Origin: Actinomycetota bacterium
Lineage (GTDB): Bacteria; Actinomycetota; Acidimicrobiia; IMCC26256; PALSA-610
Assembly: GCA_052390615.1 (NCBI GenBank)
Contig: JBQTGT010000007.1
Location: 73,614 to 137,613, forward strand
Direction: 5' to 3'
Length of the DNA: 64,000 bases
The notes under the pieces were generated by a model. That model saw only the letters and a list, made by a program, of their open reading frames with translations. It was not told the origin of the DNA and made no database searches. This document shows positions 4,605-52,368 of the stretch, piece by piece; the stretch's first letter is position 1, and every line of letters begins with the position of its first letter. The position numbers and the translations under genes are program-made.

Positions 4605-4608
4605 CAGC

Positions 4609-6209: not shown

Positions 6210-6274
6210 GACGCGGGAGTCTACGAGAGGTTCCCAAAGCTTCGTGACCGACAGGCGCTGCGACGTAGCCTGTT

Positions 6275-16793: not shown

Positions 16794-17071
16794 GCGATCA
16801 CCTCTATCGTCGACAGCGCAGATTCATTGATCGGCGAGCACGGTCACTTGCAGCGCAAATGCCACCAAGATCGCGAGACCGGTGACGGCTGCGAGGATCA
16901 GCAACATCCGCGTGCTCACGTACCGAACGGTACAGCGGTCCAACCCCGCGAGGGCCGTTCGGGCGGCGGTGTCCCGTTGTACGGCCGTCGCGCCGTACAA
17001 TTCGCACCTTGTCAGCCGCGCGTGAGCGAGGAGCCCCGGCGCGTGAGCACTCCGAGCGCGATGTGTAGATC

Positions 17072-18427
17072 ATGACGCCCTCCGACCGCGACGATCGACC
17101 GGCCAGCTCGCGCGCCAGCCGCCTCGTCGAGGCGCTGCCGGAAGGCACCTACGCGATCGGTGCGGGTTTGCTCGTCGCGGGCCTGACCGCGTACGGGTTC
17201 CAGATCCTCGCCGCCCGCCAGCTCACCGGAACGGAGTACGCGGCGCTCAATGGGCTGTGGGTGATCGTGTTCATCGTCGCGCCGGGCTTCTTCCAGCCCA
17301 TCGAGCAGGAGGTCAGCCGGGCACTCGCCCATCGCCGCGCCCAAGGGATCGGCGGCGGGCCGTTGGTCAAGCGGGCGGCGTTCCTCGGCGGGCTCCTCGC
17401 GGCCGCGGTCATGCTAATCGGACTGGCCGGGTCGCCGAAGCTGATCGACGAGGTGTTCCACGACGAGTCGTTGCTCGTCTTCGCGCTGCTCGTCGGTGTG
17501 TTCTCCTTCTATCTGGCGCACACCAGCCGCGGCGTGCTGTCCGGCAACGGCCGCTTCGGTGCCTACGGGATGATGCACGCGTCCGAGGGACTGCTGCGCA
17601 TCACTTTCTGTCTCGCGCTGTTCGTATCCGATGTCGGAACGCCATGGCTGTACGGCCTCGCGCTCGTGCTGCCGCCGCTCGGTGCGATCGGGATATCGCT
17701 GCGGGGACAGCGCGACCTTGTCACCCCCGGGCCCGAGGCACCGTACTCGGAGCTGTCGAGCGCGCTCGGCCTGTTGCTCGTCGGTTCGGTGCTGGCCCAG
17801 GCGCTGTCGTACGCGCCGTTCCTCGGCGCCAACCTGCTCGCGTCGGGGAGTGAGAAGGACATCGTCGGCAAATTCATCACCGGCTTGTTCCTCGCGCGCA
17901 TTCCGATCTTGCTGTTCCTGGCCGTGCAAGCCGCGCTCTTGCCCAAGCTCGCCGCGTTCGCGAGCGCCGGGCGTCACGACGATTTCCGCATCGGCATGCG
18001 TCGACTCGTGCTCGTCGTGGTGGGACTGGGCGTCATAGGGGTCATCGGGGGCGGCACGCTCGGACCGTGGGGAGGCGAGCTGTTGTTCGGCGAGGAGAAG
18101 TTCATCCTCGGGCGCCGCGACCTCGCATTGCTCGCGGCCGGGAGCGGCGGCTTCATCCTGGCGCTCACCCTCGCGCAGGGACTCATCGCGTTGCGGGCGT
18201 ACGGCGCGGCGATGGTCGCGTGGATGGTGGGCATCCTCGGCTTCGTGGCGGTGACCGCGCTCGGCGACGACCTGTTCCTGCGGGTCGAGCTCGGGTCGGT
18301 CGCCGGAGCCGCGCTCGCATCGGCCGTGATGGCCACGATGCTCGCGCTCCGGATGCGCCATGGCATCCCGAGCGGGGCGCTCGAAGAGCTGGTCGACACG
18401 ATCGGCCACGAACCGCCCGAGATATAG
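17072..18427 (+). CDS. Polytopic membrane protein, MOP/Wzx-like polysaccharide flippase candidate
   Basis: 451 aa with about 12-14 hydrophobic helices. It sits immediately upstream of ubiA-dprE1-dprE2. The family assignment rests on topology and context only. Confidence 0.55.
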   Translation: MTPSDRDDRPASSRASRLVEALPEGTYAIGAGLLVAGLTAYGFQILAARQLTGTEYAALNGLWVIVFIVAPGFFQPIEQEVSRALAHRRAQGIGGGPLVKRAAFLGGLLAAAVMLIGLAGSPKLIDEVFHDESLLVFALLVGVFSFYLAHTSRGVLSGNGRFGAYGMMHASEGLLRITFCLALFVSDVGTPWLYGLALVLPPLGAIGISLRGQRDLVTPGPEAPYSELSSALGLLLVGSVLAQALSYAPFLGANLLASGSEKDIVGKFITGLFLARIPILLFLAVQAALLPKLAAFASAGRHDDFRIGMRRLVLVVVGLGVIGVIGGGTLGPWGGELLFGEEKFILGRRDLALLAAGSGGFILALTLAQGLIALRAYGAAMVAWMVGILGFVAVTALGDDLFLRVELGSVAGAALASAVMATMLALRMRHGIPSGALEELVDTIGHEPPEI

Positions 18428-18450
18428 CGCCTTCGTAGACTGGAACACGC

Positions 18451-19416
18451 GTGAAGGCCCGTCGACCCATCGAATCCGCCAATGTCACCCAGTCGGCGCG
18501 CGACGAGATCGTCGTAATGGGGACAGCGACGCCTGCGTCCAACCCGTCGAAGGTCCGCGCGCTCGTGCGACTCGCGCGCCCGAAGCAGTGGGTCAAGAAC
18601 GTACTCGTGGTCGCCGCGCCCGGCGCCGCCGGCGTGCTTACCGAAGCCGAACCCGCACTCGACACCGCGATCGCGTTCGTGTGCTTTTGCCTCGCGGCCA
18701 GCGGTACCTACTACCTGAACGACGCGCTCGACGCCGACGCCGACCGAATGCATCCGACCAAACGGACCCGCCCGGTCGCGTCCTCGCAGGTTTCGGTTCA
18801 CACCGCGGTCGTAGGTGGCGTGCTCCTGCTGCTCGCCGCGGTCGCGCTCTCGTTCGTGGCGCGCGCCGAGCTGGCCCTGGTCGTCGTCGGCTATCTCGGG
18901 CTCACCATTTCGTACAGCGTGTGGCTGAAGCACGAAGCTGTGCTCGACCTCGCCGCGATTGCCGCCGGCTTCGTGTTGCGCACGATCGCGGGCGGCGTCG
19001 CCGTCGGCGTCACCATCTCGCCGTGGTTCCTCATCGTCGCGGGCGCCGGCTCGCTGTTCATGGTGACGGGAAAGCGGCACGCCGAGCTCGTCGAGCTGGG
19101 CGACGACGCGTCGACGCACCGGCCCGCGCTCGAGATGTACTCGCGGGCGTATCTGGGTTACGTGCGCGCGGTGGCGTCGAGCGTCGCGATCCTCGCGTAC
19201 TGTCTGTGGGCGTTCGAAAAAAGCGACGCGGTCGGCGAGGAGATCTGGTTCGAGCTGTCGATCGTCCCGTTCGTCCTCGGCATCTTGCGGTACGCACTGC
19301 TGCTCGAACAGGGCCGCGGCGGCGCACCCGAAGAACTGGTGCTCTCGGACCGAACGCTGTTCTTGATCGGCGTCGCGTGGGCCGCATTGTTCGCGGTCGC
19401 CGTGCACTATGGCTAA
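18451..19416 (+). CDS. ubiA: Decaprenyl-phosphate phosphoribosyltransferase (UbiA prenyltransferase superfamily, Rv3806c-like)
   Basis: ARPKQWVKN and [22 protein letters not shown] (NDxxDxxxD) motifs in a multi-TM protein. The start is uncertain (GTG 18451 or ATG 18517). Confidence 0.85.
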
Positions 19417-20821
19417 GTCGAGCCGCCACGGGCCCGGTATCCCGGGGAGCAGCGAGACGGGCGCCGACGAGCTGCTGGCCGGCTGGGGTCGCACCGCCCC
19501 GACGCGCGCGCACGTCCGCGAACCGCGACGTCTCGACGAGGTCGTCGCGCGCGTCACCGACGCCGGTCCGCGCGGCGTGATCGCGCGGGGGCTCGGTCGT
19601 AGCTACGGCGACGCCGCACAGAACGCCGGCGGCGACGTTCTGCGGCTCACCGAGATGGACCGCGTCCTCGAGCTCGACGTCGGCAAGGGGACGTGCACCG
19701 TGGAAGCGGGGGTCAGCCTCGACACACTCATGCGCGCGCTCCTGCCGCTCGGCTGGTTCCCGATGGTCGTGCCCGGCACCCGATTCGTCACCGTGGGCGG
19801 CGCGATCGCGTCCGACATCCACGGGAAGTTCCGTCACGGATCGTTTTGCGACTACGTCGAGCGCGCCCAGCTCGTGACCCCGGCGCGCGGCGTCGTCACG
19901 ATCGGTCCCGGCAGCGAACCGGACGCCTTCTGGGCAACCGCGGGCGGCATGGGCATGACCGGCGTCGTCACCGAGGCAACATTGCGGCTCCAGCCCGTCG
20001 AAGGTTCGCTCATCACCGTCGACACCGAACGGGCCAGCGACGTCGACGACTGCATGGCGCGCATGCTCGCCGACGACGACCGCTACCGCTATTCCGTCGC
20101 GTGGATCGATTGCCTCGCGCGCGGTTCCGATCTCGGCCGCTCCATCCTGACCCGCGGCAATCACGCGCCGGTTGCGGCGCTCTCTCCGAAGGAGCGCGAC
20201 CGAGCCCGCGTGTTCGCGCCCCGCAACGTCGTCAAGGCCCCGCGATGGGTTCCGGGCGGCCTCCTCAATCCGTTGACGATCGCCGCGTTCAACGAGGCGT
20301 GGTTCCGGCGCGCACCTCGTCACCGCCACGACGAGATTCAGACGCTGACACGCTTTTTCCATCCGCTCGACGGCGTGACCGGATGGAACCATGTGTACGG
20401 CCCACGCGGGTTCTTGCAGTACCAGTTCGTGGTGCCCTACGGCGCCGAGCAGGTCGTCCGTACCACGCTGGAACGCCTGAGCGACGCCCGCTGTGCGTCG
20501 TTCCTCGCCGTGCTCAAGCGCTTCGAGCACGCCGCGAACGGGATGCTCGGGTTCCCGATCGAGGGATGGACGCTCGCGCTCGACATCCCGCTGGGCGGAG
20601 ACGCGCTGGCCGCGCTGCTCGACGAGCTCGACGAGCTCGTGGTCGCGGCGGGCGGACGTGTCTACCTCACCAAGGACTCACGCCTGCGGCCCGAGCTTCT
20701 GCGCGCGATGTATCCAAGACTGGATCAGTGGCGGGACGCGCGGACCGCCCTCGACCCCCGACACCACCTGCGTTCCGACATGGACCGCCGGCTCGACCTC
20801 ACAGGGCAGGGACAACGATGA
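19409..20821 (+). CDS. dprE1: Decaprenylphosphoryl-beta-D-ribose 2'-oxidase (FAD-dependent), DprE1-like
   Basis: GWGRTAP and [18 protein letters not shown]-binding N-terminus. The C-terminus ([11 protein letters not shown]...MYPRLDQW) is colinear with my recollection of M. tuberculosis DprE1. The start overlaps the ubiA stop by 8 nt. Confidence 0.9.
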
Positions 20822-21576
20822 AAGACGCGCTCGGATCCGTGCAGTCGGTGCTGGTGCTCGGCGGAGGTTCCGACATCGCGCTCGCGACGTGCCGCGAGCT
20901 CGCGCGCCGGCGAAGCATTCGCATCGTGCTGGCCGGCCGCAAGCCGGAGGCGCTCGATGCCGCGGCCGCGGCGCTGCGGGCGGCGAGCGCGGAGGTCGAC
21001 TTGGTCGAGTTCGACGCGACCGACTTCGGGTCGCACGAATCGTTCGTCGAGAAGACGTTCGACCGGTACGGTGACTTCGACGTCGTGCTCGTCGCGTTCG
21101 GCGTCCTCGGCGATCAAGACCGAGCGGAGACCGACGCCGCCGCCGCGCTGGAGATCGTGCAAACCAACTTCACCGGCGCAGTCTCGGTCGCGGTCTCGCT
21201 CGCGCAGCGGCTGCGTACGCAGGGACACGGCACGCTCGTATTGCTGTCATCGGTCGCCGGCGAGCGCGCGCGGCGGTCCAACTTCGTGTACGGGTCGTCC
21301 AAGGCCGGCGTGGACGCCTTCTTCCAAGGGCTCGGCGACAGCCTGGCCGGGAGCGGCGCCCGGGTGATGATCGTGCGGCCTGGGTTCGTGCACACCAAGA
21401 TGACGACTGGTCTGGCGGCGGCGCCGCTGTCGACGACATCCGAACGCGTGGCGACCGCGATCGCACATGGCCTGGCGCGCGGCCGCGAGACTGTGTGGGT
21501 GCCCATGCCACTGCGATTCGTCATGTCCGTCTTGCGCCACCTTCCTCGATCCGTCTTCCGCCGGCTTCCGATCTGA
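20818..21576 (+). CDS. dprE2: Decaprenylphosphoryl-2-keto-ribose reductase (SDR), DprE2-like
   Basis: ATGA overlap with dprE1. Rossmann motif VLGGGSDIA, catalytic YGSSKAG (YxxxK). Confidence 0.85.
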
Positions 21577-21578
21577 CG

Positions 21579-22151
21579 GTGCCGCGCACGGTCGCCGCCT
21601 TCGATTTCGACGGCACACTCTCGCGTCGCGACACGCTCCTCCCGTTCCTTGCCTGGGTGGCGGGTTGGCGGCGTGTCGGCACCGCCGCGATCGCCGAGGC
21701 GCCGCGCCTCCGCCGGTCGGATCGGGACACGGCCAAGGAGCGGCTCCTCGTCCGCGTCCTAGGCGGGCTGCGTCACGACGTCGTCGCCCGCGAAGGGCAC
21801 GCCTACGCGACCCAGGTGTTCGAGCACAGGCTGCGGCCGAGCGTCGTCGCCAAACTCGAACGGCACCGAGCGCAGGGCCACGAGGTCGTCATCGTGTCGG
21901 CGTCGCTCGACGTCTACCTCACGGAGATCGGACGTGATCTCGGCGTCGCGGCCGTGCTGTGCACGCGCTTGGAGGTCGACGAACGCGGTCGTTGCACCGG
22001 CCGCATGGTCGGCGGCAACTGCCGCGGCGAGGCGAAGGCAGAACGCTTGCGCGCGTACCTCGGTGACGAGGAAGTCATGCTGTACGCGTACGGCAACAGC
22101 GCCGGCGACGATGCAATGCTCGCGCTCGCCGACTTCCCAACGCGCGTCTAA
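21579..22151 (+). CDS. HAD-superfamily (subfamily IB-like) phosphatase
   Basis: FDFDGTLS (DxDGT), VSASLD and GNSAGDDAML motifs. GTG start lies 3 nt after the dprE2 stop. Confidence 0.75.
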   Translation: MPRTVAAFDFDGTLSRRDTLLPFLAWVAGWRRVGTAAIAEAPRLRRSDRDTAKERLLVRVLGGLRHDVVAREGHAYATQVFEHRLRPSVVAKLERHRAQGHEVVIVSASLDVYLTEIGRDLGVAAVLCTRLEVDERGRCTGRMVGGNCRGEAKAERLRAYLGDEEVMLYAYGNSAGDDAMLALADFPTRV

Positions 22152-22164
22152 CGCACGACCACCG

Positions 22165-22211
22165 AACTGGCGTGACAGAAGCGCGCCACACGCGCCTGTG
22201 TCACGCCAGTT
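22165..22211. terminator. Perfect 13-bp inverted repeat between convergent genes (HAD phosphatase and amidase)
   Basis: AACTGGCGTGACA (22165-22177) and TGTCACGCCAGTT (22199-22211). Confidence 0.4.
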
Positions 22212-22225
22212 CGCAGGGCGGTGCA

Positions 22226-23833: not shown

Positions 23834-23972
23834 GTCCGCGAACTCGATCGGCAGGGCCCCTCCGCTTTGCAGGCAAGAGGCTTACATACGCGAGGCCCAC
23901 CTCCAAACCTCGAGCGCAATATCCGGCTCCGAGTGCGAACAAATCGTGCACTGTGTGTGGTACGAACGAGCG

Positions 23973-25112
23973 ATGCCGGGCACCGCGCGACCCACGGTGG
24001 CGATCGACGTCACGCCGCTGATCGGTCTGCGGACCGGAATCGGCAACGCGGTCGCCGAGGTAATGACGGCGCTGGCGGAACTGGACGCGGCGCCCGATCT
24101 GGTGCCGTATACGCTCAGCTTGCGCGCCCGGCAGTCTTCTGACGACGTTCCCGAGGGCACGCGTTTCGTCCCGCTCCCGGCCCGGGCGCTGCTCGCGGCG
24201 TGGGGCCGCTCGAACACACCGCGCATCGACCGGTGGATCCGTCCGGCGCGCGTGCTGCACGCGACTAACTATCTCTGCCCGCCGAGCGCGCTCCCGTCGG
24301 TCGTCAGCGTCTACGACTGTTCGTTCGTGCGCTATGCCGAACTGTGCACGCCCGAGGTGCGGGCGGTCGGTCCGATCGTGCGCCGCGCGATCGCGCGCGG
24401 CGTGACCGTTCACACGACTTCGCAGTTCGTGGCCGACGAGATCGAGGACGCTTTCGCGCCGGGTTTGCGGGCGGCCGGACGACTCGTCGTCGTTCCGCTG
24501 GGCATTCCGCCGATCGGGAGCGTGGCCGAGATGCCGACCGGGCTCGACGCGCGGATCGCCGGGGCGCCGTTCGTATTGGCGATTGGCACGATCGAGCCGC
24601 GGAAGAACTACGCGCACCTCGTGGGCGCGTTCGTGAAGATCGCGACCCAACATCCCGACTTGCGTCTTGTCATCGCGGGGCAGGACGGACCCGCCCGTTC
24701 CGACGTCGACGCGGCCATCGAGCGGCTTCCACCGGATGTCCGCGCGCGCGTCGTGCTCCCGGGGTCGGTGAGTGATCCCACGCGCCGCGCGCTACTCGAC
24801 CGTGCCGCGTTGCTCGCCTACCCGTCGATCTACGAAGGCTTCGGCTTTCCCGCGCTCGAAGCGATGACCGCGGGCGTACCGGTCGTCGCTGCGCGCGCGG
24901 GCGCGATCCCCGAGATCGCGGGCGACGCCGCGCTACTCGTCGAGCCGACTGACGAGAACCAGATCGCCGACGCGATGCACCGCGTGCTCGCCGACGCCGA
25001 CACCCGCCGCGAGCTGGTCGCCCGCGGCCGCGACCGCGTCCGCGAGTTCTCGTGGCAAGACACCGCGCGCGGCCTCGCGGCCTGCTACCGACGCCTCGCC
25101 GCCTCGCCATGA
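23973..25112 (+). CDS. Glycosyltransferase, GT4 (GT-B fold)
   Basis: C-terminal GT4 signature (PSIYEGFGFPALEAMTAGVPVV). ATG at 23973 gives the typical short N-terminus. Confidence 0.85.
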   Translation: MPGTARPTVAIDVTPLIGLRTGIGNAVAEVMTALAELDAAPDLVPYTLSLRARQSSDDVPEGTRFVPLPARALLAAWGRSNTPRIDRWIRPARVLHATNYLCPPSALPSVVSVYDCSFVRYAELCTPEVRAVGPIVRRAIARGVTVHTTSQFVADEIEDAFAPGLRAAGRLVVVPLGIPPIGSVAEMPTGLDARIAGAPFVLAIGTIEPRKNYAHLVGAFVKIATQHPDLRLVIAGQDGPARSDVDAAIERLPPDVRARVVLPGSVSDPTRRALLDRAALLAYPSIYEGFGFPALEAMTAGVPVVAARAGAIPEIAGDAALLVEPTDENQIADAMHRVLADADTRRELVARGRDRVREFSWQDTARGLAACYRRLAASP

Positions 25113-25122
25113 GGCGCCCTGC

Positions 25123-26214
25123 ATGAGGGTCGCGTGCCACGCCGGGCAGCTGCTGCAGCCGGTCCCGGGCGGGATCGGCCTCTACACGACCGCGCTGCTG
25201 GCCCGACTGCGTGTGATGGGCGTCGACCCGGTGGCGTTCGCAGCCGGCCCTCGCCCCCGCACGATGCCGGCCCACGTTCCGTGGATCGACCTCGGTTGGC
25301 CGCATGGGAGCGTGCGCTACGAGTTGTGGCACCAGCTGCGGCGTCCGCGCGTGCACATCGACGCCGACGTCGTCCATGCGCCCAGCCTGGCCATTCCTCC
25401 GGTCGTCGGCGTTCCGCTCGTCGTGACGGTGCACGACATCGCGTTTCTGCGCATCCCGGGAGTCACGACTCGACGCGGGACGTCGTTCCATACGCGTGCC
25501 CTCGAAATCGCACGACGCGATGCAACGCTGGTGCTGGCGCCGTCGGCATTCACGCGCCTCGAACTCATCCGCGAGGGATTCGCAAGTGAGGACGTCCTGC
25601 TCACGCCCTTGGGTGTGAATCCTCCACTCCGTCGTGGACCTGAAGAGATCGACGCGACGGTCGAGCGCGCCGGCTTGGTCGGTCCGTACATCTTGACGGT
25701 CGGCACGATCGAACCGCGCAAGGACCTGCCGACGATCGTGGCAGCAGCCGAACGCCTCCGTCGGACGCGCACCGACCTCATGCTGGCCATCGTGGGTCCG
25801 CACGGTTGGGGGTCGGTACCGGGACTCGATCGCGCGGGCGTCAAGGTGCTGGGCGAGTTGCCGTGGCGCATCGTCGACGCGCTGTACCGTCGCGCCGCCG
25901 CCGTGTGCGTCGCGTCGCGCTACGAGGGATTCGGTTTGCCGGCGCTGGAAGCACTGGTGCGAGGCGCGCCACTTGTCGCCGCCGACAATTCGGCGCTCGC
26001 CGAGGTGGTCGGCGGCTCGGGCTTGCTGTTCCCGACGAGTGACGTCGACGCGCTGACGAACGCGCTCGATCGCGTCCTCGATGACCACGCACTCCGTACC
26101 GACCTCGCCCGACGCGGGCGCGCTCGGGCCGCCGAGATGACGTGGGAAGCATCGGCCGAGGCCCATGCCCGCGCGTTCGAGCTCGCGGCGGCCCGGCATC
26201 TCGAACGCGCCTGA
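25123..26214 (+). CDS. Glycosyltransferase, GT4
   Basis: SRYEGFGLPALEALVRGAPLV signature. Confidence 0.85.
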   Translation: MRVACHAGQLLQPVPGGIGLYTTALLARLRVMGVDPVAFAAGPRPRTMPAHVPWIDLGWPHGSVRYELWHQLRRPRVHIDADVVHAPSLAIPPVVGVPLVVTVHDIAFLRIPGVTTRRGTSFHTRALEIARRDATLVLAPSAFTRLELIREGFASEDVLLTPLGVNPPLRRGPEEIDATVERAGLVGPYILTVGTIEPRKDLPTIVAAAERLRRTRTDLMLAIVGPHGWGSVPGLDRAGVKVLGELPWRIVDALYRRAAAVCVASRYEGFGLPALEALVRGAPLVAADNSALAEVVGGSGLLFPTSDVDALTNALDRVLDDHALRTDLARRGRARAAEMTWEASAEAHARAFELAAARHLERA

Positions 26215-26244
26215 GCGGCAACCCCGATTTTGTATGGTGGCGCG

Positions 26245-27372
26245 GTGCGCGTGCTGCTCGACGTATCCGCGGTACCCGCGCATCCCGTCGGCGCCGGTGT
26301 CTACACGATTGCGTTGACGGCGGGGCTGGGTGGTCGTGACGGAATCGACCTGCACTTGCTGACCCGGCACGACGACGCCGACCGGTGGATCACGTTGGCA
26401 CCGCGCGCCACGGTGCACGCGGCCTCGCCCGCGAGTCGGCCCCTGCGGCTGGCATGGGAGCAGACCGGCGCCGCTCGTTTGGCGCGTCGCGTCCGGCCCG
26501 ACGTGTGGCACGGCCCGCACTACACACTGCCGCTCGCGGTCGGCGTGCCGACCGTGGTGACCGTGCACGATCTGACGTTTTTCGACCATCCCGAATGGCA
26601 CCAGCGAGCCAAGGTCACGTTCTTCCGTCGCATGATCCGAATGAGCGTCCGCCGCGCGGCCGCGGTTGTCTGCGTGAGCGAACACACTGGGGGGCGTCTC
26701 CGTGCGATCGCACCGCCGACCGGCGAGATCGTCATTGCGCACCACGGCGTCGACCGGCTGCGCTTCCACCCCGACGGAGACGACGATGCCGACCGCACAG
26801 TTCTGCTCCGACACGGGGCAACACCGCCGTATGTCGCCTTCGTCGGGACACTCGAACCACGCAAGGACGTGCCGACACTCGTGAGCGCGTTCGCTCGAGT
26901 GGCGCGTCGAGATCCCGATCTACGGCTGGTTCTCGCCGGGAACGACGGCTGGGGAGTCAACGCGGTGCGGGATGCGATTGCGACGAGCGGCGTCGCGACG
27001 CGGATCGTCCGCACCGGCTACCTCCCGGATGCCGTGCTCCCACCGCTGTACCGCCACGCCGCAGCCGTCGCGTACGCATCGCAGGAGGAGGGCTTCGGCG
27101 TCCCGGCCCTCGAGGCCTTGGCGTGTGGCGCGCCGCTCGTGACCACGACGGGCTCGGCGCTGCAGGAGGTCGTCGGCGACGCTGCCCTCACCGTGGCACC
27201 CGGCGACACCGACACGCTCGCGGACGCACTCGATTCCCTGCTGACAGACGACGAGCTCGCGCGCCGTCTCCGAAAGGCCGGACCTGAGCGCGCCGCCGAC
27301 TTCACATGGACGCGCACCGTCGACATCCACGTCGAGTGCTACCAGCGCGTCGTCGCGAGCGCCCGCCGATGA
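26245..27372 (+). CDS. Glycosyltransferase, GT4
   Basis: SQEEGFGVPALEALACGAPLV signature. GTG at 26245 gives an (M)RVLLDVS N-terminus. The track ORF starts at TTG 26230. Confidence 0.85.
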   Translation: MRVLLDVSAVPAHPVGAGVYTIALTAGLGGRDGIDLHLLTRHDDADRWITLAPRATVHAASPASRPLRLAWEQTGAARLARRVRPDVWHGPHYTLPLAVGVPTVVTVHDLTFFDHPEWHQRAKVTFFRRMIRMSVRRAAAVVCVSEHTGGRLRAIAPPTGEIVIAHHGVDRLRFHPDGDDDADRTVLLRHGATPPYVAFVGTLEPRKDVPTLVSAFARVARRDPDLRLVLAGNDGWGVNAVRDAIATSGVATRIVRTGYLPDAVLPPLYRHAAAVAYASQEEGFGVPALEALACGAPLVTTTGSALQEVVGDAALTVAPGDTDTLADALDSLLTDDELARRLRKAGPERAADFTWTRTVDIHVECYQRVVASARR

Positions 27373-28280
27373 AGGCGCTCGTCACCGGCGCGAGCGGATT
27401 CGTCGGACAACATCTGTGCGCGCACTTGCGCCAAACCGGCGACGATGTCGTCGCGTGCGACCGAGATGGACCACACTCGTTCGACATCACCGATCGTGAA
27501 GCGGTGCATGACGCGTTCACCCGCCACCGTCCCGATGTCGTATTCCACCTCGCCGCGTTCACGCACGTCGGCAAGTCGTGGCAGCGTCCGCGAGAAGTGC
27601 TGCGCGTCAACGTCGAAGGTACGGCCAACGTGCTGGACGCCGCGGGCGCGTCGGACGTCGCACGGATCTTGTACGTCGGCAGCGCCGAGGAGTACGGCAA
27701 GGTCGACGGGAACGACGGACCGCCGCTCGCGGAGACGGCGCCGCTACGTCCTTCGACCCCGTACGGCGCGAGCAAGGTTGCGGCGTCGTTCCTCGCGTTG
27801 CAGGCGTGGATCGGATCGGAGCTGGCGGTTGTGCGGGTGCGGCCGTTCGGCCACACGGGGCCGGGGCAGCCGGACCAGTTCGTGGTGCCCGGTTTGGCGC
27901 ACCGCATCGCGCGGGCCGAGGCCGACGGCGGCGAGCAGATCACGGTGGGGGCTCTCGATCCCGTTCGCGATATCGGCGACGTCCGCGACTTCGTCGTCGC
28001 GTACCGCCTGGCGGCGCTCCGGGGTGAGCCGGGCGAGGTCTACAACGTGTGCACCGGCACGGGGGTTTCGATCGCGGAGATCGCCGACAAGCTTCTCGCG
28101 CGCGCGCATCGCCCGCTGCGGATCGCGCAGGATCCTGTGCTCATGCGGCCCGTCGAGGTGCCCCGTCTCGTCGGCGATCCAACCAAGCTGCAGGCCGCGA
28201 CCGGATGGGCGCCGCGGTTCACGCTCGACGACACCCTTACCGCCGTGCTCGACGAGGCGCGGCAGAGTTACGGACCCTGA
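27369..28280 (+). CDS. NAD(P)-dependent epimerase/dehydratase-family reductase (GDP-4-keto-6-deoxy-D-mannose reductase/Rmd-like)
   Basis: ATGA overlap with the preceding GT4. VTGASGFVGQHL Rossmann motif and YGASKVA (YxxxK). Substrate assignment is tentative. Confidence 0.8.
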   Translation: MKALVTGASGFVGQHLCAHLRQTGDDVVACDRDGPHSFDITDREAVHDAFTRHRPDVVFHLAAFTHVGKSWQRPREVLRVNVEGTANVLDAAGASDVARILYVGSAEEYGKVDGNDGPPLAETAPLRPSTPYGASKVAASFLALQAWIGSELAVVRVRPFGHTGPGQPDQFVVPGLAHRIARAEADGGEQITVGALDPVRDIGDVRDFVVAYRLAALRGEPGEVYNVCTGTGVSIAEIADKLLARAHRPLRIAQDPVLMRPVEVPRLVGDPTKLQAATGWAPRFTLDDTLTAVLDEARQSYGP

Positions 28281-31209: not shown

Positions 31210-32973
31210 GTGGCGGAGCGACGCGTCAACACGATCGTCGCCTTCGTGTACGCAGTGCTCACGTACGCGCTGCTGTTTCCCACCTGGCCCAATCGACTGC
31301 GCACGCACATCCCCGGCGACGCGGGCGACGCGCTACTGAATCTTTGGATTCTCGACTGGGTCGGCCACCACATCGACGACGGGTGGGGCTCGTTGTGGGA
31401 CACGACGATCTTCTTTCCGTACGAGAACACGTTGGCGTACAGCGAGTCGCTCTTGCCGGTCGCGATCGTGCACCGCGCGGTCGCCGTCGTCCTCCGATCC
31501 GACGTCATGGCGTTCAACCTGATCCATCTCGCCGCGTGGTTCGCGTCGATGTGGTTCACATACCTGCTCGCTCGCCGGCTGACGGGAAGCGTTGCCGGCG
31601 CGTTCGTGGCGGGCCTCGTGTACACGCTGGCGACGCCGCGCCTCGCGCATTACTGGCACTTCCAACTCGCGTTCGGGTTCCTGGTCCCCGTCGTGATCTA
31701 TGCGATCTTGCGGTTCTTCGAGCAGCCGACACGGCGTCGCGCGCTGGCACTCGGATTCGCGGCGGGCGGGATCGTGTTGTCGACGAGCTACTACGGCCTG
31801 ATGACGGCCATCGCCGCCGCGATCATCGTCGGCGGGCTGTTGGTGTGGGGTCGTGGTGAGGGTTGGCGCGCGCCCGTCAAGGGCTTGGCGGTGGCCGGCA
31901 CCGTCGCCGCCCTACTCGTTGCGCCGGTCGCGTATCAATACGCGCAGCTGCAACGCGACGACCACTTCCAACGCGGCTACGAGGCGGGCGGGTCGGCGCA
32001 CGTCGGCGACTTCACCCGCGTGACGCACGACCACTATGTGCTCGGTGAGTACGGGCCGCTGGCGGCGCGTTCGCAGCCTGCGGACGGCTCGTTGGAACGA
32101 CGGCTGTTCCCCGGTGGCGTCGCGCTGGGACTCGGCGGAGTCGGCGTGATGATCGTCGCACGCGATCTGTGGCGCCGTCGGCGCCCGCGCGACCGCGACC
32201 TTGCACAACGACTCCTGGCGCTGATCGTCCTCGCGGGTGCGGTGTTGTTCGTGCTGTCGTTCGGCGACAAGACCACGATCGGCTCGCGCACGATCTGGAT
32301 GCCCTACGCCCTGCTGCGCGAGCTTCCGGGGTTCGCGGGCATCCGCGCGCCCGCCCGCTTCGTCGCGTTCTCGATCCTGGCGCTGGCGCTGCTCGCCGCG
32401 ATCGGGTTCGCGCGGGTGACCGGACGACGATCAGTGCGCGTCACGATCACTGCGCTCGTCCTCTGTTCGGGGTTGCTCGTCGCGGAGTCGGCGTTGCAAG
32501 TGCAGTTCCTGCGCGTTCCCGACCGGAACAGAGCGCGTGCGGTCAACGAAGAACTCGCGACGCGGCCCGACGGCACGGTCGTCGAGCTGCCGATCACGAG
32601 CCCGGCGGACGGCGCGACCTGGGCGTTCGTCGAGACGCCGCGCCAATGGTTGGCGCGGATCGACGGGAACGAACGCGTCGGCGGCTACAGCGGGTTCGAC
32701 CCGCCTGGTTTCGTCGAGCTCGTGGCCGCGCTCGACACCTTCCCGGCCGCCGACGGGCTCGCGACTGCCGACCGGCTCGACGTTCGCTACGTCGTCGTGC
32801 GCACCGCGTTGCCGGGTCCGCTCCCCGAGTTCTTGGCGCGTGTCGTCGATCGAGACGGCGTCGGTTGGTACTCCGACGCCTACGCCGCGGAGCTCGTCGG
32901 CGACATCCCACCCGAACGGGTCGCGAACGCCCGCCGCTACGGCGACGCCTGGCTGGTCGAGCTGCAGGACTGA
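31210..32973 (+). CDS. Large polytopic membrane protein with a C-terminal extracytoplasmic domain; GT-C-fold glycosyltransferase candidate
   Basis: 587 aa. N-terminal loop HIPGDAGDALLNLWILDW, followed by about 10-12 TM helices and a ~170-aa soluble tail. The GT-C call rests on architecture and context only. Confidence 0.6.
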   Translation: MAERRVNTIVAFVYAVLTYALLFPTWPNRLRTHIPGDAGDALLNLWILDWVGHHIDDGWGSLWDTTIFFPYENTLAYSESLLPVAIVHRAVAVVLRSDVMAFNLIHLAAWFASMWFTYLLARRLTGSVAGAFVAGLVYTLATPRLAHYWHFQLAFGFLVPVVIYAILRFFEQPTRRRALALGFAAGGIVLSTSYYGLMTAIAAAIIVGGLLVWGRGEGWRAPVKGLAVAGTVAALLVAPVAYQYAQLQRDDHFQRGYEAGGSAHVGDFTRVTHDHYVLGEYGPLAARSQPADGSLERRLFPGGVALGLGGVGVMIVARDLWRRRRPRDRDLAQRLLALIVLAGAVLFVLSFGDKTTIGSRTIWMPYALLRELPGFAGIRAPARFVAFSILALALLAAIGFARVTGRRSVRVTITALVLCSGLLVAESALQVQFLRVPDRNRARAVNEELATRPDGTVVELPITSPADGATWAFVETPRQWLARIDGNERVGGYSGFDPPGFVELVAALDTFPAADGLATADRLDVRYVVVRTALPGPLPEFLARVVDRDGVGWYSDAYAAELVGDIPPERVANARRYGDAWLVELQD

Positions 32974-33043
32974 TCCCGGCACGCACCCGCGAGCAGGCAC
33001 GGGACCCGGTTCGCGGCAGCCACCCGCCTACACTTCGGGGGCC

Positions 33044-33817
33044 ATGAAAGCTGTGCTGCTCGCAGGCGGCCTCGGTACCCGCTTGCGGGAGGAGACCGAG
33101 TTTCGCCCGAAACCGATGGTCGAGGTCGGGGGCAAACCGATCCTCTGGCACATCATGAAGGGCTTCGCGCACCATGGCATCCGTGAGTTCGTGCTCGCCA
33201 TCGGCTACCGGGGCGACGTCATCAAGGACTACTTCCTCAACTACGAGGCGCGCACCAACGACTTCACCGTCCACCTGGGCGACAGCAAGCAGCTCACCTA
33301 CCACGGCGCCCACGACGAGCACGACTGGACCGTGACCGTCGTCGAGACTGGCGCCACCACTCAGACCGGCGGTCGGGTGAAGCGGGTGGAGCCGTTCGTC
33401 GACGGCCGCTGCATCGTCACCTACGGCGACGGCCTCGCCGACGTCGACCTCGGGTTGCTGCTCGACTTCCACTCCGCGCACGGCAAGCTAGCGACGGTCA
33501 CGACCGTCCGGCCGTTGTCGCGTTTCGGCGTCATGGACCTCGCCCGCGACGGCACGGTCGAGCGGTTCCGGGAGAAGCCGCTCACCGAGGACTACGTGAA
33601 CGCCGGGTTCTTCGTGTTCGAGCCCGAGGTCTTCGAATACCTCGACGGCGACTGTGTGCTCGAACAAGCGCCGCTCGAAGCGCTCGCGCGCGACGGGCAG
33701 CTGGTCGCGTACCGCCACGAGGGTTTCTGGCAGCCGATGGACACATACCGCGAATCGGTGATGCTCAACGAGATGTGGGATCGGGGCGACGCGCCGTGGA
33801 AGGTGTGGAAGCCGTGA
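33044..33817 (+). CDS. rfbF: Glucose-1-phosphate cytidylyltransferase
   Basis: LAGGLGTRLREETEFRPKPMVEVGGKPILWHIM and the C-terminus FWQPMDTYRE...W are characteristic of RfbF/DdhA. Confidence 0.9.
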   Translation: MKAVLLAGGLGTRLREETEFRPKPMVEVGGKPILWHIMKGFAHHGIREFVLAIGYRGDVIKDYFLNYEARTNDFTVHLGDSKQLTYHGAHDEHDWTVTVVETGATTQTGGRVKRVEPFVDGRCIVTYGDGLADVDLGLLLDFHSAHGKLATVTTVRPLSRFGVMDLARDGTVERFREKPLTEDYVNAGFFVFEPEVFEYLDGDCVLEQAPLEALARDGQLVAYRHEGFWQPMDTYRESVMLNEMWDRGDAPWKVWKP

Positions 33818-42211: not shown

Positions 42212-43240
42212 CTAGCGAGCGATGTGGTGCGCGAGCGTACGACGGATGCCCTCGTCGAGACCGACTCGGTTGGAAAGACCCAGCTCTTTCTGGGCTCGGG
42301 CGATGCTCGGCACGTACCGTTCGGGAATCCGACGCGGGTCGGCGGTCCCGCGCTGCTCGACCACGACGCCGGGCGCCGCCGCCGCGATCCGATCAGCCAG
42401 TTCCCGGATGGACACCGCGTCGTCGGCACCGACGTTGTACGCCCGGCCGGCTTCACCGCGCACCAACAGTGCGAGCAGCCAGACGACCAGGTCGGCCGGA
42501 TACTGGTAGGAGCGGCGCGGCGTCCCATCACCACCGATCACGATCGGACCGCTCGCGAGCGCGTCGCGCACGAAGTTCCCGGCCGCGAAGTGCGCATCGA
42601 GTGGAAGATGCGGCCCGAGAAATGCGAAGAGACGGCCGATGACGACGTCGAGGGCACCCGCGGCCGTCGCGACGGCGGCCAACAACTCCGCCATGCGCTT
42701 GGCCTCGTGATACGCGTTTTCGGGCGCCAACGGATCGGGCGCGCCGCCGTACTCTTCGGAGACGTTGTCGAGATCCAGGGGCTGGCGGCCGTACACCGCG
42801 CCCGAGCTGGTGAACAGCACTCGGATGCGCCCCCATTCTTCCGCCCGTTCGAGAAAGTGGCGCATGCCCTCGACCACGGTGTCGATCATCGTGTGCGGCG
42901 AGTCGCGGTTGAGCGCAGCGCTGGCGGCCGTCGCGGCGTGGATTGCCGCGTCAGCACGAGGAAGCGCGGGAAACGGTACCAAGACGTCGCCGCGATGGAA
43001 CGTGATCTTCTCGTGCGCGGCGACGATCGGCAGCCTCGTCGCGGCTGCTTTCGGATCCCGCGTCAGCACATCGACGTGCACACCCAAGTTGAGACTCGTG
43101 TTCGCCCACGCGACCGTGTGCAACAGCCACGTGCCGACGAAGCCGGTTCCGCCGGTGACGAACAGCCGCGTCCCGCGGAGCTGTTCGAGGTCGTCGCGGG
43201 CGGCCTCGCCGATCTCGATGAGATCCTCGGGACTCGTCAC
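42212..43240 (-). CDS. NAD(P)-dependent epimerase/dehydratase-family (extended SDR) sugar-nucleotide reductase/epimerase
   Basis: GTGA overlap with the upstream membrane-protein gene. VTGGTGFVGTWL and YHEAKRM (YxxxK). The track ORF extension to 43555 is spurious. Confidence 0.8.
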   Translation of the reverse strand: MTSPEDLIEIGEAARDDLEQLRGTRLFVTGGTGFVGTWLLHTVAWANTSLNLGVHVDVLTRDPKAAATRLPIVAAHEKITFHRGDVLVPFPALPRADAAIHAATAASAALNRDSPHTMIDTVVEGMRHFLERAEEWGRIRVLFTSSGAVYGRQPLDLDNVSEEYGGAPDPLAPENAYHEAKRMAELLAAVATAAGALDVVIGRLFAFLGPHLPLDAHFAAGNFVRDALASGPIVIGGDGTPRRSYQYPADLVVWLLALLVRGEAGRAYNVGADDAVSIRELADRIAAAAPGVVVEQRGTADPRRIPERYVPSIARAQKELGLSNRVGLDEGIRRTLAHHIAR

Positions 43241-51159: not shown

Positions 51160-52368
51160 GTGCGCCTGCTCTACGTCGTCCACCGCTATCACTCGGAGAT
51201 ACCCGGCGGGGCCGAGATCGCGTGCCGGCTCTTCGCCACCCAAATGGCCGGGCGCGGACACGACGTCGCAGTGGTCACCAGCTGCGCTCGCGACTACGTC
51301 GACTGGGCCGATGTCTATCCGGCCGGCACCACCAACGAGGACGGCGTCCTGGTGCACCGCTTGCCGGTTTCGGCGCCGCGTGACATTCAACGCTTCAACC
51401 GGATGTGCGGCTCGGTGCGACCGGACGCCGAGATAGTGCCGTGGGACCGGCAGCAGCAGTGGCTCGTCGAGCAGGGCCCGCACCTTCCCGACCTGGCGCG
51501 CTGGCTCGACGCCAACTACGGCCGCTTCGACGCGGTCGTCGTGTTCACCTACCTGTACTACCCGGCGTCCGTCGCGCTCCGGACACTCGCGGGGCGCGTG
51601 CCGATCGTCTTCCACCCGTGCGCCCACGAAGAATGGCCGCTCCATCTCTCGTTGTACGACACGCCGTTCCGCATAGCCGACGCGTTCGCCTACTTCACAC
51701 CAGAAGAGGAACAGCTCGTGCGCGAGCGCTTCGACGATCGCGTTCTGGGCGAGGTGCTGGGTATCGGGCTCGACATCGGAGCCGCGACGCAGTTCGACGA
51801 CGGCGGGGCGCGCTTCCGAGCCGAAACCAGGATCGGCGATCGTCCCTACATCACCTATGTCGGGCGCCTCGACCGGAGCAAAGGCGTCGCCGAGCTCGCA
51901 CAATGGTTCCGCATCTTTCGAGAACGCACCGGACGCGACCTCGTGTTGACGTTGCTGGGCGACGAGGTGCACCCGATCGAACGTGCGGACGACGTTGTGG
52001 TCACCGGCCCCGTGTCGGAGGAGCTACGACAGTCCGCGGTTTCGGGCGCGGCCTGCCTCGTGCACCCCTCGTACTTCGAAAGCTTCTCGATGGTGCTGAC
52101 CGAGACCTGGGCTCTCGCCCGGCCGGTGCTCGTGCAGGGACGGTGCGACGTGCTCGCGGGTCAGGCGCGACGCGCGGGTGGGGGTGTTGCGTACCGCGGC
52201 TACGCCGAATTCGAAGCAGCCCTCGAACGCGTTCTCGACGACGAAGCACTCGCCACGATGTTCGGACAACGCGGCCACGACTATGTTCGCCGCAACTACG
52301 ACTGGGACGTGTTGGCGCCCCGTTACGAGCGGTTGCTCGAGAAGGCGTGCTCCGCTAACGGTACGTGA
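51160..52368 (+). CDS. Glycosyltransferase GT4, type-a paralog 1
   Basis: N-terminus RLLYVVHRYHSEIPGGAEIACRLFA..RGHDVAVVTSCARDYVDWA, shared with the genes at 54195 and 59086. C-terminal PSYFESFSMVLTE. Confidence 0.85.
   Translation: MRLLYVVHRYHSEIPGGAEIACRLFATQMAGRGHDVAVVTSCARDYVDWADVYPAGTTNEDGVLVHRLPVSAPRDIQRFNRMCGSVRPDAEIVPWDRQQQWLVEQGPHLPDLARWLDANYGRFDAVVVFTYLYYPASVALRTLAGRVPIVFHPCAHEEWPLHLSLYDTPFRIADAFAYFTPEEEQLVRERFDDRVLGEVLGIGLDIGAATQFDDGGARFRAETRIGDRPYITYVGRLDRSKGVAELAQWFRIFRERTGRDLVLTLLGDEVHPIERADDVVVTGPVSEELRQSAVSGAACLVHPSYFESFSMVLTETWALARPVLVQGRCDVLAGQARRAGGGVAYRGYAEFEAALERVLDDEALATMFGQRGHDYVRRNYDWDVLAPRYERLLEKACSANGT

Follow-up and report, generated by a model that had tools for sequence, protein, structure and literature searches.

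Known routes to lipid-linked pentofuranose donors

The closest described relatives of the locus analyzed here are the three-component extracytoplasmic pentofuranose glycosylation systems of Kelly, Duong, Nothof, Lowary, and Whitfield, for which ORF12-15 of Citrobacter youngae O1/O2 is the prototype (Kelly et al., PNAS 2024, PMC11127046). That study showed biochemically the dephosphorylation of polyprenyl-P-ribose-5-P by a phosphoribose phosphatase (PRP) domain of the HAD family that is joined to a UbiA-type synthase. In C. youngae this HAD-type domain is part of ORF15 and acts on farnesyl-P-Ribf-5-P; with the D18A substitution, the phosphorylated product builds up (PMC11127046). The same work describes DprE1/E2-containing Araf systems, including some from Actinomycetota (Rathayibacter), and one case in which PRP and PPPRS are split (PMC11127046). 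Our locus resembles these systems in combining a UbiA-type polyprenyl-P phosphoribosyltransferase acting on PRPP with 5'-phosphate removal assigned to the HAD superfamily, in the optional epimerases (DprE1/E2 homologues for Araf), and in the presence, predicted for our locus, of a dedicated exporter and a GT-C transferase alongside a glycan pathway of the ABC-transporter type.

The mycobacterial and corynebacterial DPA pathway has the same predicted product, and its synthase, oxidase, and reductase are close homologues of those found here. It differs in using the PAP2 phosphatase Rv3807c where our locus has a HAD enzyme, and in having the GtrA-like Rv3789 where our locus has a MOP protein. The window (the whole 64-kb stretch of DNA that was analyzed) also yielded no family match to emb, aft, or glf, as the sequence-only reading had maintained, and in its DprE1 the benzothiazinone Cys position is occupied by Ala. 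Outside Mycobacteriales, DPPRS, DprE1, and DprE2 homologues occur in the group IV pilin D-Araf cluster of Pseudomonas aeruginosa (PsPA7_6245-6251), where they supply the GT-C enzyme TfpW; unlike our locus, it is reported to contain a homologue of Rv3807c together with a GtrA-like protein, and neither HAD nor MOP.

Two further arrangements bear on the phosphatase. In the HAD-UbiA fusions (NCBIfam NF006088 / PRK08238), exemplified by USU14136.1 from a Sphingomonadaceae plasmid and by WP_120670923.1 from Rhizobium sp. CCGE531 (the latter named by Kelly et al.), the same two activities reside in one polypeptide, whereas the genes are split in the window. On the Lactococcus plasmid pLLF27D, known from RefSeq annotation only, DPPRS is followed directly by a stand-alone HAD-IB gene; that locus differs from ours in having no DprE1/E2 (ribose type) and in carrying a GtrA-type small protein.

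A five-gene operon with the DPA enzymes

Five forward-strand genes at 17072-22151 of the window, which comes from an uncultured actinobacterium of Acidimicrobiia type, read as one operon: MP451, ubiA, dprE1, dprE2, and HAD-IB. The MP451 ORF (451 aa, 17072-18427) ends 23 nt 5' of ubiA (18451..19416), whose TAA at 19414-19416 lies within an 8-nt overlap with dprE1 (19409..20821, ATG at 19409). An ATGA overlap at 20818-20821 joins dprE1 to dprE2 (20818..21576), and the HAD gene (21579..22151) starts with GTG at 21579, the third base past the dprE2 TGA at 21574-21576 (a 2-nt spacer). These coordinates bear out the junctions first claimed for the locus: the 8-nt overlap, the ATGA, and a HAD start just past the dprE2 stop. 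In the 74-nt convergent gap between HAD and an amidase gene, a hairpin at 22163..22213 (fold of 22145-22230, -49.5 kcal/mol, z -6.1, equally stable shuffles 0/200) is a probable bidirectional terminator closing the operon; a consensus terminator scan missed it because it has no U-tract. The overlaps, the 2-nt spacing, and the terminal hairpin define a single transcription unit. At the other end, the 278-bp divergent gap at 16794..17071, between the lpd start (16793, minus strand) and the MP451 ATG at 17072, is the presumed promoter region; no sigma-70 consensus was found in it.

The UbiA-family polyprenyl-phosphate 5-phosphoribosyltransferase (DPPR synthase, Rv3806c-like) scores 368.9 bits against NCBIfam NF008978 (cut-off 207) and matches Rv3806c (PDB 8j8j) at E 5.5e-65, with its NDxxDxxxD motif lined up with NDVRDVEADR of 8j8j. 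Similarly, the DprE1-type FAD oxidase (polyprenyl-P-ribose 2'-oxidase) reaches 560.1 bits against NF053785 (cut-off 500) and matches M. smegmatis DprE1 (4aut) at E 4.8e-104, while the DprE2-type SDR 2'-keto reductase reaches 357.9 bits against NF053786 (cut-off 250) over its full length, 1-252, and matches the DprE2 chain 21gq_C at E 2.4e-70. With all three proteins above equivalog cut-offs and matched to mycobacterial PDB entries, this is, as judged from sequence, a bona fide DPPRS-DprE1-DprE2 set, and the gene names originally proposed hold.

The operon would thus make, and probably export, a polyprenyl-phosphate-beta-D-arabinofuranose donor. The UbiA-type synthase would move ribose-5-P from PRPP onto polyprenyl-P (presumably C50 or C55), the soluble HAD-IB enzyme, using Asp9 as its nucleophile, would strip the 5'-phosphate, DprE1 (FAD) would oxidize C2', and DprE2 (NAD(P)H) would reduce it again, giving the arabino configuration. 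MP451, with 12 TM segments and a MOP fold, would be the likeliest exporter. Outside the membrane, GT-C enzymes (foremost MP587, followed by MP774 and MP623) would place Araf on a glycan of the wall or surface. The DPA pathway of mycobacteria follows this logic, as do the 'three-component' systems described by Kelly et al. 2024. We consider this explanation as a whole, an Araf-donor operon of five genes with a HAD phosphatase, a flippase, and GT-C users, to be probable.

A different donor, polyprenyl-P-ribose or another pentofuranose epimer made by functionally diverged DprE1/E2 homologues, has parallels in related loci with ubiA and HAD and no epimerase (ribose type), and in the Xylf produced via other epimerases in Kelly systems. 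This is nevertheless very improbable here: DprE1 and DprE2 exceed their equivalog cut-offs at full length, and their alignments to the solved mycobacterial pair run end to end.

The stand-alone HAD-IB phosphatase

The HAD protein belongs to the HAD-IB type by TIGR01490 (123.5 bits, cut-off 98.3) and matches PF12710 at E 7.8e-34. Its N-terminus, MPRTVAAFDFDGT, agrees with homologue starts, and 22 homologues show no variation at D9 and D11 (DxDGT), S107, K153, D177, or the GGNCRGxxK motif. The fusion model NF006088 / PRK08238 matches the HAD protein at E 3.7e-3 and the UbiA of the window at E 3.9e-52. Compared with the Kelly systems, this is a separate gene, of a type weakly similar to fusion-type PRP domains, and the HAD halves of the fusions are distant: the window HAD family aligns to the Sphingomonad fusion with an hhalign probability of 67% (E 5e-5), a weak match that counts against the explanation given above, as does the 5% (E 0.008) obtained with the Rhizobium CCGE531 fusion. 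For the Lactococcus pLLF27D HAD-IB the probability is 97% (E 1.1e-10), with an NC(R/H)GxEK motif in common and an identity of 24%.

Genomic context was surveyed at 81 loci with a HAD relative, counting DPA-module genes within 6 kb. All of ubiA, dprE1, and dprE2 lie within that distance at 34/81 loci and at least one of them at 51/81; none is found at 19/81, and 11/81 are too short for judgement, leaving 70. Actinomycetota have the genes in the order ubiA-dprE1-dprE2-HAD; in Gallionellaceae and their relatives (Betaproteobacteria) it is dprE1-dprE2-HAD-ubiA. Loci of Polaromonas and Rhodoferax hold ubiA, two TM proteins, and HAD, with no dprE1/E2, and therefore tie the HAD enzyme to the synthase product. 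Two groups count against the association: a HAD sister clade located between uvrA and an M32 carboxypeptidase gene, where the module is absent, and Microthrixaceae-type loci with a dprE2-like gene and HAD, where ubiA and dprE1 are absent within 10 kb.

The claim that no PAP2 gene is present holds for the 64-kb window: PF01569 was absent from the Pfam results for every substantial ORF, and neither a relaxed motif scan, which did recover a Streptomyces Rv3807c-like PAP2 as control, nor tblastn of the window with a Streptomyces Rv3807c-like PAP2 found anything. No GtrA-like gene was found in the 64 kb either. Streptomyces, by contrast, shows a PAP2-DPPRS-GtrA arrangement.

It is conceivable that the HAD protein is a general or unrelated phosphatase riding in the operon, with a PAP2 or other phosphatase elsewhere acting on DPPR. 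Phosphoserine phosphatases are the solved proteins nearest to it in sequence, many homologues carry the JGI name PgpC ('phosphatidylglycerophosphatase C'), and the module is absent beside the uvrA-linked paralogous clade and Chlamydiae relatives; moreover, Rv3807c is reportedly dispensable in mycobacteria, leaving the step open to non-dedicated enzymes. But none of the SerB or PgpC NCBIfam models reaches its cut-off on the HAD protein (serB gives 25 bits, cut-off 144), a search of 10 kb around each of the 81 loci found no PAP2, and DPA-gene linkage at 51 of the 70 judgeable loci, in two phyla and in differing gene orders, is far above chance, the 6-kb surroundings of a given three-gene module being, on a rough estimate, under 1% of a genome. 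We regard a bystander role as unlikely.

The HAD gene is intact, its translation is coupled, its synteny with the module extends over two phyla, and comparative genomics makes its product a well-supported candidate for the DPPR 5'-phosphatase. The suggestion of a non-orthologous replacement for PAP2 gains from this synteny and from the intact motifs but loses its novelty: the PRK08238 fusion model already exists, and because the substitution was experimentally shown in 2024 (Kelly et al.), the HAD enzyme in place of PAP2 is a fresh example and not a new principle.

MP451 and the proposed export step

MP451 gave no Pfam, NCBIfam, or PDB sequence match, while the best Foldseek matches of its AF2 model (pLDDT 85.9, pTM 0.84) are MATE, MurJ, and WzxE, at a TM of about 0.7. 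The model supports assignment to the MOP superfamily (MATE/MurJ/Wzx flippase fold) with 12 TM segments; homologues are labelled 'O-antigen/teichoic acid export membrane protein', some with PF03023. The sequence-only reading had placed a flippase-like protein at the position of Rv3789, and the fold agrees; flipping of the Araf donor is a weaker proposition, with linkage confined to a sub-lineage. MP451 lies upstream of ubiA at several loci (L002, L006, L018, and L082/L083), and a homologue is absent from most Acidimicrobiia module loci.

MP451 may instead be a flippase of Wzx type whose substrate is an oligosaccharide linked to undecaprenyl-PP and built by the neighboring GT4 enzymes, the Araf donor crossing otherwise, perhaps via a small unlinked transporter or the GT-C enzyme. 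PP-linked oligosaccharides are the classical substrates of MOP proteins, and the fold fits WzxE and MurJ in addition to MATE. The homologue labels and the patchy pairing with the module point the same way. Small proteins (GtrA, Rv3789, ArnE/F) are the known flippase candidates for polyprenyl-P-monosaccharides, and the exporter of Kelly et al., ORF14, is likewise small, modeled as an EmrE/ArnEF-like dimer. On the other hand, MP451 heads the same operon as ubiA, comparison of match lists places MP451 and HAD relatives together on many contigs, the window yielded no initiating phosphoglycosyltransferase, and it encodes a Wzt-type ABC exporter for polymer export. An oligosaccharide substrate is thus quite possible, though we lean against it; the polyprenyl-P-Araf donor is the likeliest candidate substrate for MP451.

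Downstream glycosyltransferases and the setting of the operon

Four GT-C-like proteins had been proposed downstream. The glycosyltransferases immediately following the operon (23946-27372) are, however, GT4 enzymes of the GT-B fold; these three and an NAD-dependent epimerase/dehydratase form a forward-strand block at 23946..28280 (Pfam Glycos_transf_1 / Glyco_transf_4 and Epimerase) that also adjoins the module at L002 and L082 and possibly builds the acceptor glycan. The TM-rich candidates are 9-32 kb away, at 31210, 43237, 45630, and 52355; the proposal stands for MP587, by its modeled fold, and for MP774 and MP623, but not for MP746, in which a GT-C signal was not seen.

MP587 (31210..32973, plus strand) is a predicted GT-C-fold membrane glycosyltransferase, DUF6311/YfhO-like where the Kelly enzymes are GT136. 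It has a precomputed PF19830 assignment, and its relatives carry PF19510, PF10131, PF09586, and lectin-like domains. All 22 of 22 Foldseek matches of its AF2 model (pLDDT 87.0, pTM 0.89) at E<=1e-3 are GT-C proteins (AglB/STT3, DPY19, AftD, AftA, PglB, ArnT), and G39 and D40 are invariant in a PGDxGD motif past TM1. Homologues lie close 3' of HAD, about 120 nt away at L012 and about 2 kb away at L037, and MP587 is the best candidate for the Araf transferase.

MP774 (43237..45561, minus strand), with about 9 TM segments, had no match in Pfam and NCBIfam searches and is a GT-C-like candidate by its relation to the MP587 family profile (hhalign probability 96%, E 3.1e-9, 187 columns). MP623 (52355..54226, minus strand), another such candidate, has about 10 TM segments, 997 relatives at E<=1e-3, and an invariant or nearly invariant DD (D65/D66) past TM1; among 30 family members, PMT_2 occurs in 3, GT87 in 1, and Laminin_G_3 lectin-like domains in 4. 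GT-C (PMT_2) genes also flank the module at L004 and L048.

Among whole-cell sugars of one cultured Iamiaceae strain, arabinose is not listed (PMC12263773), which would count against the Araf reading if that strain carries the module. The operon itself adjoins the core genes lpd, sucB, and lipB/A, and related Acidimicrobiia conserve it, a setting that differs from the variable serotype island of the Kelly systems.

A five-gene operon for a predicted lipid-linked arabinofuranose donor

Five plus-strand genes at 17072-22151, all coding-like with high GC3 in a window of ~68% GC, encode a 451-aa membrane protein (MP451, 17072-18427), a UbiA-type DPPR synthase (DPPRS, 18451-19416), DprE1 (19409-20821), DprE2 (20818-21576) and a HAD-family protein (21579-22151). 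The gene set and its junctions are just as the sequence-only reading had described them: ubiA and dprE1 overlap by 8 nt (TAA at 19414-19416, ATG at 19409), dprE1 and dprE2 share an ATGA at 20818-20821, and the GTG start of the HAD gene at 21579 follows the dprE2 TGA at 21574-21576. Translation from this GTG gives the N-terminus MPRTVAAFDFDGT, in agreement with the N-termini of 21 homologues. A divergent gap of 278 bp lies 5' of the MP451 gene, and the 74-nt gap that separates the HAD gene from the convergently oriented amidase gene is filled by a hairpin (22163-22213; -49.5 kcal/mol, z -6.1) that lacks a U-tract. Together, the junctions, the upstream gap and the closing hairpin define a single five-gene operon; consensus promoter and terminator scans are uninformative at 68% GC.

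The proposed counterparts of Rv3806c, DprE1 (Rv3790) and DprE2 (Rv3791) all score above equivalog cut-offs and strongly match solved proteins. The synthase reaches 368.9 bits against NF008978 (cut-off 207), its residues 29-319 spanning positions 28-320 of the 322 in the profile, and matches the Rv3806c structure 8j8j at E 5.5e-65. Its Asp-rich NDxxDxxxD motif, the Mg2+/PRPP site in a cytoplasmic loop of these synthases, is conserved and aligns with NDVRDVEADR of Rv3806c. The weight of these residues is documented (PMC11127046). The protein thus belongs to the decaprenyl-phosphate phosphoribosyltransferase family and would carry out PRPP-dependent transfer of ribose-5-phosphate to polyprenyl phosphate.

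DprE1 scores 560.1 bits against NF053785 (cut-off 500), contains a FAD_binding_4 domain (PF01565, E 3.6e-21) and matches M. smegmatis DprE1 (4aut) at E 4.8e-104. DprE2, of SDR fold, scores 357.9 bits against NF053786 (cut-off 250; positions 1-252 of 252) and matches the solved DprE2 chain 21gq_C at E 2.4e-70. Near residue 390, DprE1 has Ala at the equivalent of Mtb C387 (GWTLALDIP against GWNVCVDFP). C387 is the benzothiazinone adduct site, a mark of drug sensitivity and not a family-defining residue, so that natural insensitivity to BTZ-type covalent inhibitors is predicted here.

A stand-alone HAD enzyme as candidate DPPR phosphatase

By its profile matches, the fifth gene product is a stand-alone HAD-IB hydrolase (TIGR01490, 123.5 bits, cut-off 98.3; TIGR01488, 100.8 bits, cut-off 45; PF12710, E 7.8e-34). 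HAD motifs I (DxDGT), II (S/T), III (K) and IV ((G)DxxxD) are intact; D9, D11, S107, K153 and D177 are invariant among homologues, as is GGNCRGxxK, a family-specific motif. Homologues labeled by JGI as phosphatidylglycerophosphatase C (PgpC) have no NCBIfam equivalog match behind that label, which we set aside.

The PAP2 signature, as in mycobacterial Rv3807c, is KX6RP / PSxH / SRX5HX3D. As the sequence-only reading had it, the window appears to hold no PAP2 gene: no scanned window ORF matches PF01569, and a relaxed motif scan together with tblastn (query, a Streptomyces PAP2 adjoining a DPPRS) found nothing in the 64-kb window or in 81 related loci; a PAP2 may be encoded elsewhere in the genome. 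The relaxed scan recovered the Streptomyces control and missed a divergent Sphingomonad PAP2, so its sensitivity is limited; a strict scan requiring PSGH was also empty, yet missed both annotated PAP2 controls and was discarded. The reported lack of glf, emb and aft orthologs likewise holds, with zero matches to the GtrA, GLF, Emb and AftA-D families among window ORFs in Pfam and NCBIfam scans. GtrA-like proteins of the Rv3789 type have ~120-150 aa and 3-4 TM helices; a search of the window for short ORFs rich in TM segments and with coding-like GC3 gave none.

Linkage across genomes bears on the function of the HAD. A scan with one genome per species gave 525 HAD relatives, from which 80 loci were kept; the encoding locus of a metagenome HAD homologue (L082) brought those counted to 81. 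Acidimicrobiia MAGs supply nearly all of the closest loci, and complete genomes with the module include Aquihabitans sp. McL0605 (NZ_CP188252.1) and Acidiferrimicrobium sp. IK. At 34 of the 81 loci, ubiA, dprE1 and dprE2 all lie within 6 kb of the HAD gene, and at 51 at least one of them does; 11 loci are too short for linkage to be judged, and 19 have none within 6 kb, including four (L010, L023, L031, L045) with ubiA and/or dprE1 at ~7-8 kb. The Actinomycetota order is ubiA-dprE1-dprE2-HAD, and that of Gallionellaceae and other Betaproteobacteria is PMT_2 GT-C, dprE1, dprE2, HAD, ubiA and an LPG_synthase_TM-type membrane protein. Loci in Polaromonas and Rhodoferax (L059, L067, L081) carry ubiA, genes for two polytopic proteins (9 and 10-11 TM helices) and HAD without dprE1 or dprE2, which ties the HAD to the product of the synthase and not to the epimerase; these are probably a ribofuranose version of the system with a stand-alone HAD.

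The association is not exclusive, since a clade of HAD relatives (~50% identity) lies between uvrA and an M32 carboxypeptidase gene, away from DPA genes (L007, L019, L025, L032, L033). The module is also mostly absent near the HAD relatives of Chlamydiae, and Microthrixaceae-type loci carry a dprE2-like gene and HAD with neither ubiA nor dprE1 within 10 kb. In L003, L041, L066, L071 and L049, a dprE2-like SDR gene and HAD adjoin lpd, and no MOP gene (the exporter superfamily considered below) lies within 10 kb either; decay, relocation or a second role may be involved at these loci.

More distant HAD-IB relatives (33-41% identity) are found on >1,600 plasmids, in tellurite-resistance (ter) clusters, as in L084 (Caballeronia plasmid) and L085 (Raoultella plasmid), where they stand beside TerD and VWA genes. 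The biosynthetic module of these clusters has been described as a pair of HAD enzyme and phosphoribosyltransferase (PMC11994780, citing Anantharaman et al.). This circumstantial pairing hints at a wider theme of phosphatases acting on phosphoribosyl products; a phosphoribosyltransferase was not confirmed in the two plasmid loci inspected.

Comparison with known systems

A HAD solution to this step has a direct precedent. In Citrobacter youngae, ORF15 combines a UbiA-type polyprenyl-phosphate phosphoribosyltransferase and a HAD-family phosphoribose phosphatase (PRP) in one fusion protein, and its D18A mutant accumulates farnesyl-P-ribose-5-P (Kelly et al., PNAS 2024, PMC11127046). The general system described there consists of synthase and PRP, an exporter and a GT-C enzyme, with DprE1/E2 homologues added for Araf; the systems listed include those of Rathayibacter (Actinomycetota), and at one phage locus PRP and synthase are encoded apart (PMC11127046). 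The window HAD shows the coupling that marks a PRP, being encoded in one operon with the PRPP-dependent synthase.

In the fusion proteins (PRK08238), HAD and UbiA form one polypeptide, whereas here the genes are separate and the HAD is only weakly similar: this model gives E 3.9e-52 for the window synthase, against E 3.7e-3 for the HAD. When the HAD halves of two plasmid-borne fusion genes were compared with the window HAD family by hhalign, alignments were full-length but weak both for a Sphingomonad (prob 67%, E 5e-5) and for Rhizobium CCGE531 (prob 5%, E 0.008). We therefore take the window HAD to have the same predicted job in the same genetic setting, and it is possible that it was recruited independently of the characterised PRP sub-lineage. 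Streptomyces retains PAP2-DPPRS-GtrA, in contrast to the window with its HAD in the place of PAP2 and no GtrA-like gene.

A parallel is found on a Lactococcus plasmid that encodes DPPRS, a stand-alone HAD-IB and GtrA; its HAD aligns with the window HAD family (hhalign prob 97%, E 1.1e-10), and the motif NC(R/H)GxEK is common to both. On this dairy plasmid (pLLF27D, L088), the stretch 3383-6715 encodes a 533-aa hypothetical protein together with these three; genes for an LCP protein and an oligosaccharide flippase lie alongside, and the locus is likely a ribofuranosylation system for a cell-wall polysaccharide.

The window HAD is accordingly a candidate DPPR 5'-phosphatase, a substrate assignment by analogy with these systems. 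The proposal that HAD stands in for PAP2 seems right in substance, given synteny and coupling, and is not new in principle; with the HAD solution demonstrated in 2024, the window operon leaves the understanding of the pathway unchanged. Differences from known systems at the level of components (a stand-alone TIGR01490-type HAD, a MOP exporter candidate and a DUF6311-type GT-C) may deserve follow-up.

Candidate exporter and arabinosyltransferases

MP451 matches nothing in Pfam or NCBIfam; a few of its homologues have a precomputed PF03023 match, and homologues carry database names such as O-antigen or teichoic acid exporter. Its AlphaFold (AF2) model (pLDDT 85.9, pTM 0.84) gives 56 Foldseek matches in the PDB (E<=1e-3), with MATE, MurJ and WzxE at the top (TM 0.63-0.78), so that the earlier description "flippase-like" is right at fold level. 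Members of the MOP superfamily have 12-14 TM helices in two 6-helix bundles, and MP451, as modeled, is a 12-TM protein of this superfamily (MATE/MurJ/Wzx) in its fold. The "MATE" exporter of Kelly et al., ORF14, was modeled as a small EmrE/ArnEF-like dimer (PMC11127046), so the 12-TM MOP protein represents another type of candidate exporter. It is no universal partner of the module, since TM proteins encoded upstream of ubiA in L009 and L076, considered as possible relatives, proved unrelated.

A further exporter candidate for the proteobacterial Araf system is LPG_synthase_TM (PF03706, an MprF flippase-type domain); the cluster PMT_2-dprE1-dprE2-HAD-ubiA-LPG_synthase_TM is conserved in L048, L050, L051, L055, L057, L065, L070 and L073, loci of Gallionellaceae and other Betaproteobacteria.

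Four GT-C-like proteins had been proposed downstream; of the four TM-rich proteins probably meant, one has a modeled GT-C fold (MP587), two are GT-C-like candidates (MP774, MP623) and the fourth (MP746) shows no GT-C signal. The three glycosyltransferases directly 3' of the operon are GT4. Best supported is MP587 (31210-32973), a member of a DUF6311/YfhO-like group, whose confident AF2 model (pLDDT 87.0, pTM 0.89) has a predicted GT-C fold: its Foldseek matches at E<=1e-3 number 22, every one a GT-C enzyme, with AftD (TMq 0.57) and AftA among them. The acidic residue that GT-C enzymes conserve in their first extracytoplasmic loop has a counterpart in the PGDxGD motif, of which G39 and D40 are invariant in the family. 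Relatives of MP587 are encoded closely downstream of the HAD gene in L012 (~120 nt) and L037 (~2 kb); a 605-aa protein at the end of L082, considered as an orthologue, showed no relation by tblastn and hhalign. MP774 matches the MP587 family profile (prob 96%). In MP623, a DD following TM1 (D65/D66) is invariant or nearly so in the family, and relatives show PMT_2 and GT87 matches and lectin-like domains. MP746 shows no relation to the MP587 and MP623 family profiles, and its family matches are all sub-threshold. Elsewhere, the module has PMT_2-type GT-C genes of the respective genome as its immediate neighbours.

Proposed pathway and implications

The observed gene identities, coupling, synteny and folds suggest a pathway with putative substrates, lipid length, topology and acceptor. 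The synthase would join PRPP and polyprenyl phosphate, the HAD would strip the 5'-phosphate, and DprE1 and DprE2 would epimerise C2'; the donor would then cross the membrane, most plausibly via MP451, for GT-C enzymes to add Araf to a glycan probably built by the GT4 enzymes nearby, with the Wzt system as its exporter.

A broader reading, which we offer tentatively and consider rather doubtful as a whole, is that many Acidimicrobiia keep an ancestral lipid-linked Araf pathway beside core metabolic genes, that a TIGR01490-type HAD was recruited independently of both PAP2 and fusion-type PRP, and that one sub-lineage added both DUF6311/YfhO-like GT-C transferases and a 12-TM MOP protein that flips a polyprenyl-monophosphate sugar. 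Were this true, an undescribed arabinan-like envelope polymer would exist in an abundant, mostly uncultured class, and a view would open on the origin of the mycobacterial arabinan machinery. We found nothing in the literature on DprE1/DprE2 in Acidimicrobiia. For whole-cell sugars of the group, one Iamiaceae description was found, listing rhamnose, ribose, mannose and galactose only; arabinose is thus not among the sugars of this one cultured strain, which is not a known carrier of the operon (PMC12263773).

With this operon, the PRPP-derived lipid-linked pentofuranose donor pathway would extend to Acidimicrobiia, an actinobacterial class that is widespread and for the most part uncultured. 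Both there and in some Betaproteobacteria, the DPPRS/DprE1/DprE2 module usually has a stand-alone HAD-IB gene as its partner. For annotation, a HAD-IB gene adjoining a ubiA-type DPPRS is likely to encode a DPPR phosphatase, not "PgpC." D-arabinofuranose is predicted in envelopes with no earlier report of it, and the HAD offers a soluble, easily expressed candidate enzyme for the step of DPA synthesis that is least well characterised.

Genomic surroundings

Upstream of the operon lie minus-strand housekeeping genes for lpd, an E2 acyltransferase, a LipB-LipA fusion, an M24 peptidase, metH and pepA. The fusion (12354-14048, minus strand) is a single ORF with LplA-B_cat (octanoyltransferase LipB), LIAS_N and Radical_SAM (lipoyl synthase LipA) domains, and occurs also in the related L082 (925-2517, minus strand).

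Downstream is a long envelope-glycan region encoding an Amidase_2 protein, the three GT4 enzymes, an epimerase, a nonulosonic-acid-like sugar pathway, GT2, methyltransferases, further GT4 enzymes and a Wzt ABC ATPase. The Amidase_2 protein (N-acetylmuramoyl-L-alanine amidase; 22226-23833, minus strand) has ~6 C-terminal repeats, GYWLVARDGGVFSFGDAxFxGS, that match no Pfam family, and its gene also adjoins the operon in L002 and L082. At 32537-38820 (plus strand), genes for a nucleotidyltransferase, a 4,6-dehydratase, a DegT-type aminotransferase, NeuB+SAF and a ThDP (acetolactate-synthase-like) enzyme stand in series, in what looks like a nonulosonic-acid or modified-sugar pathway. The Wzt-type ABC ATPase (57710-59146, minus strand) carries a Wzt_C glycan-binding domain, and no Wzm-like permease adjoins it in a TM scan. 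At the edge of the region, a gene at 60780-63050 (minus strand) encodes a secreted-looking protein of 756 aa with FG-GAP/beta-propeller repeats.
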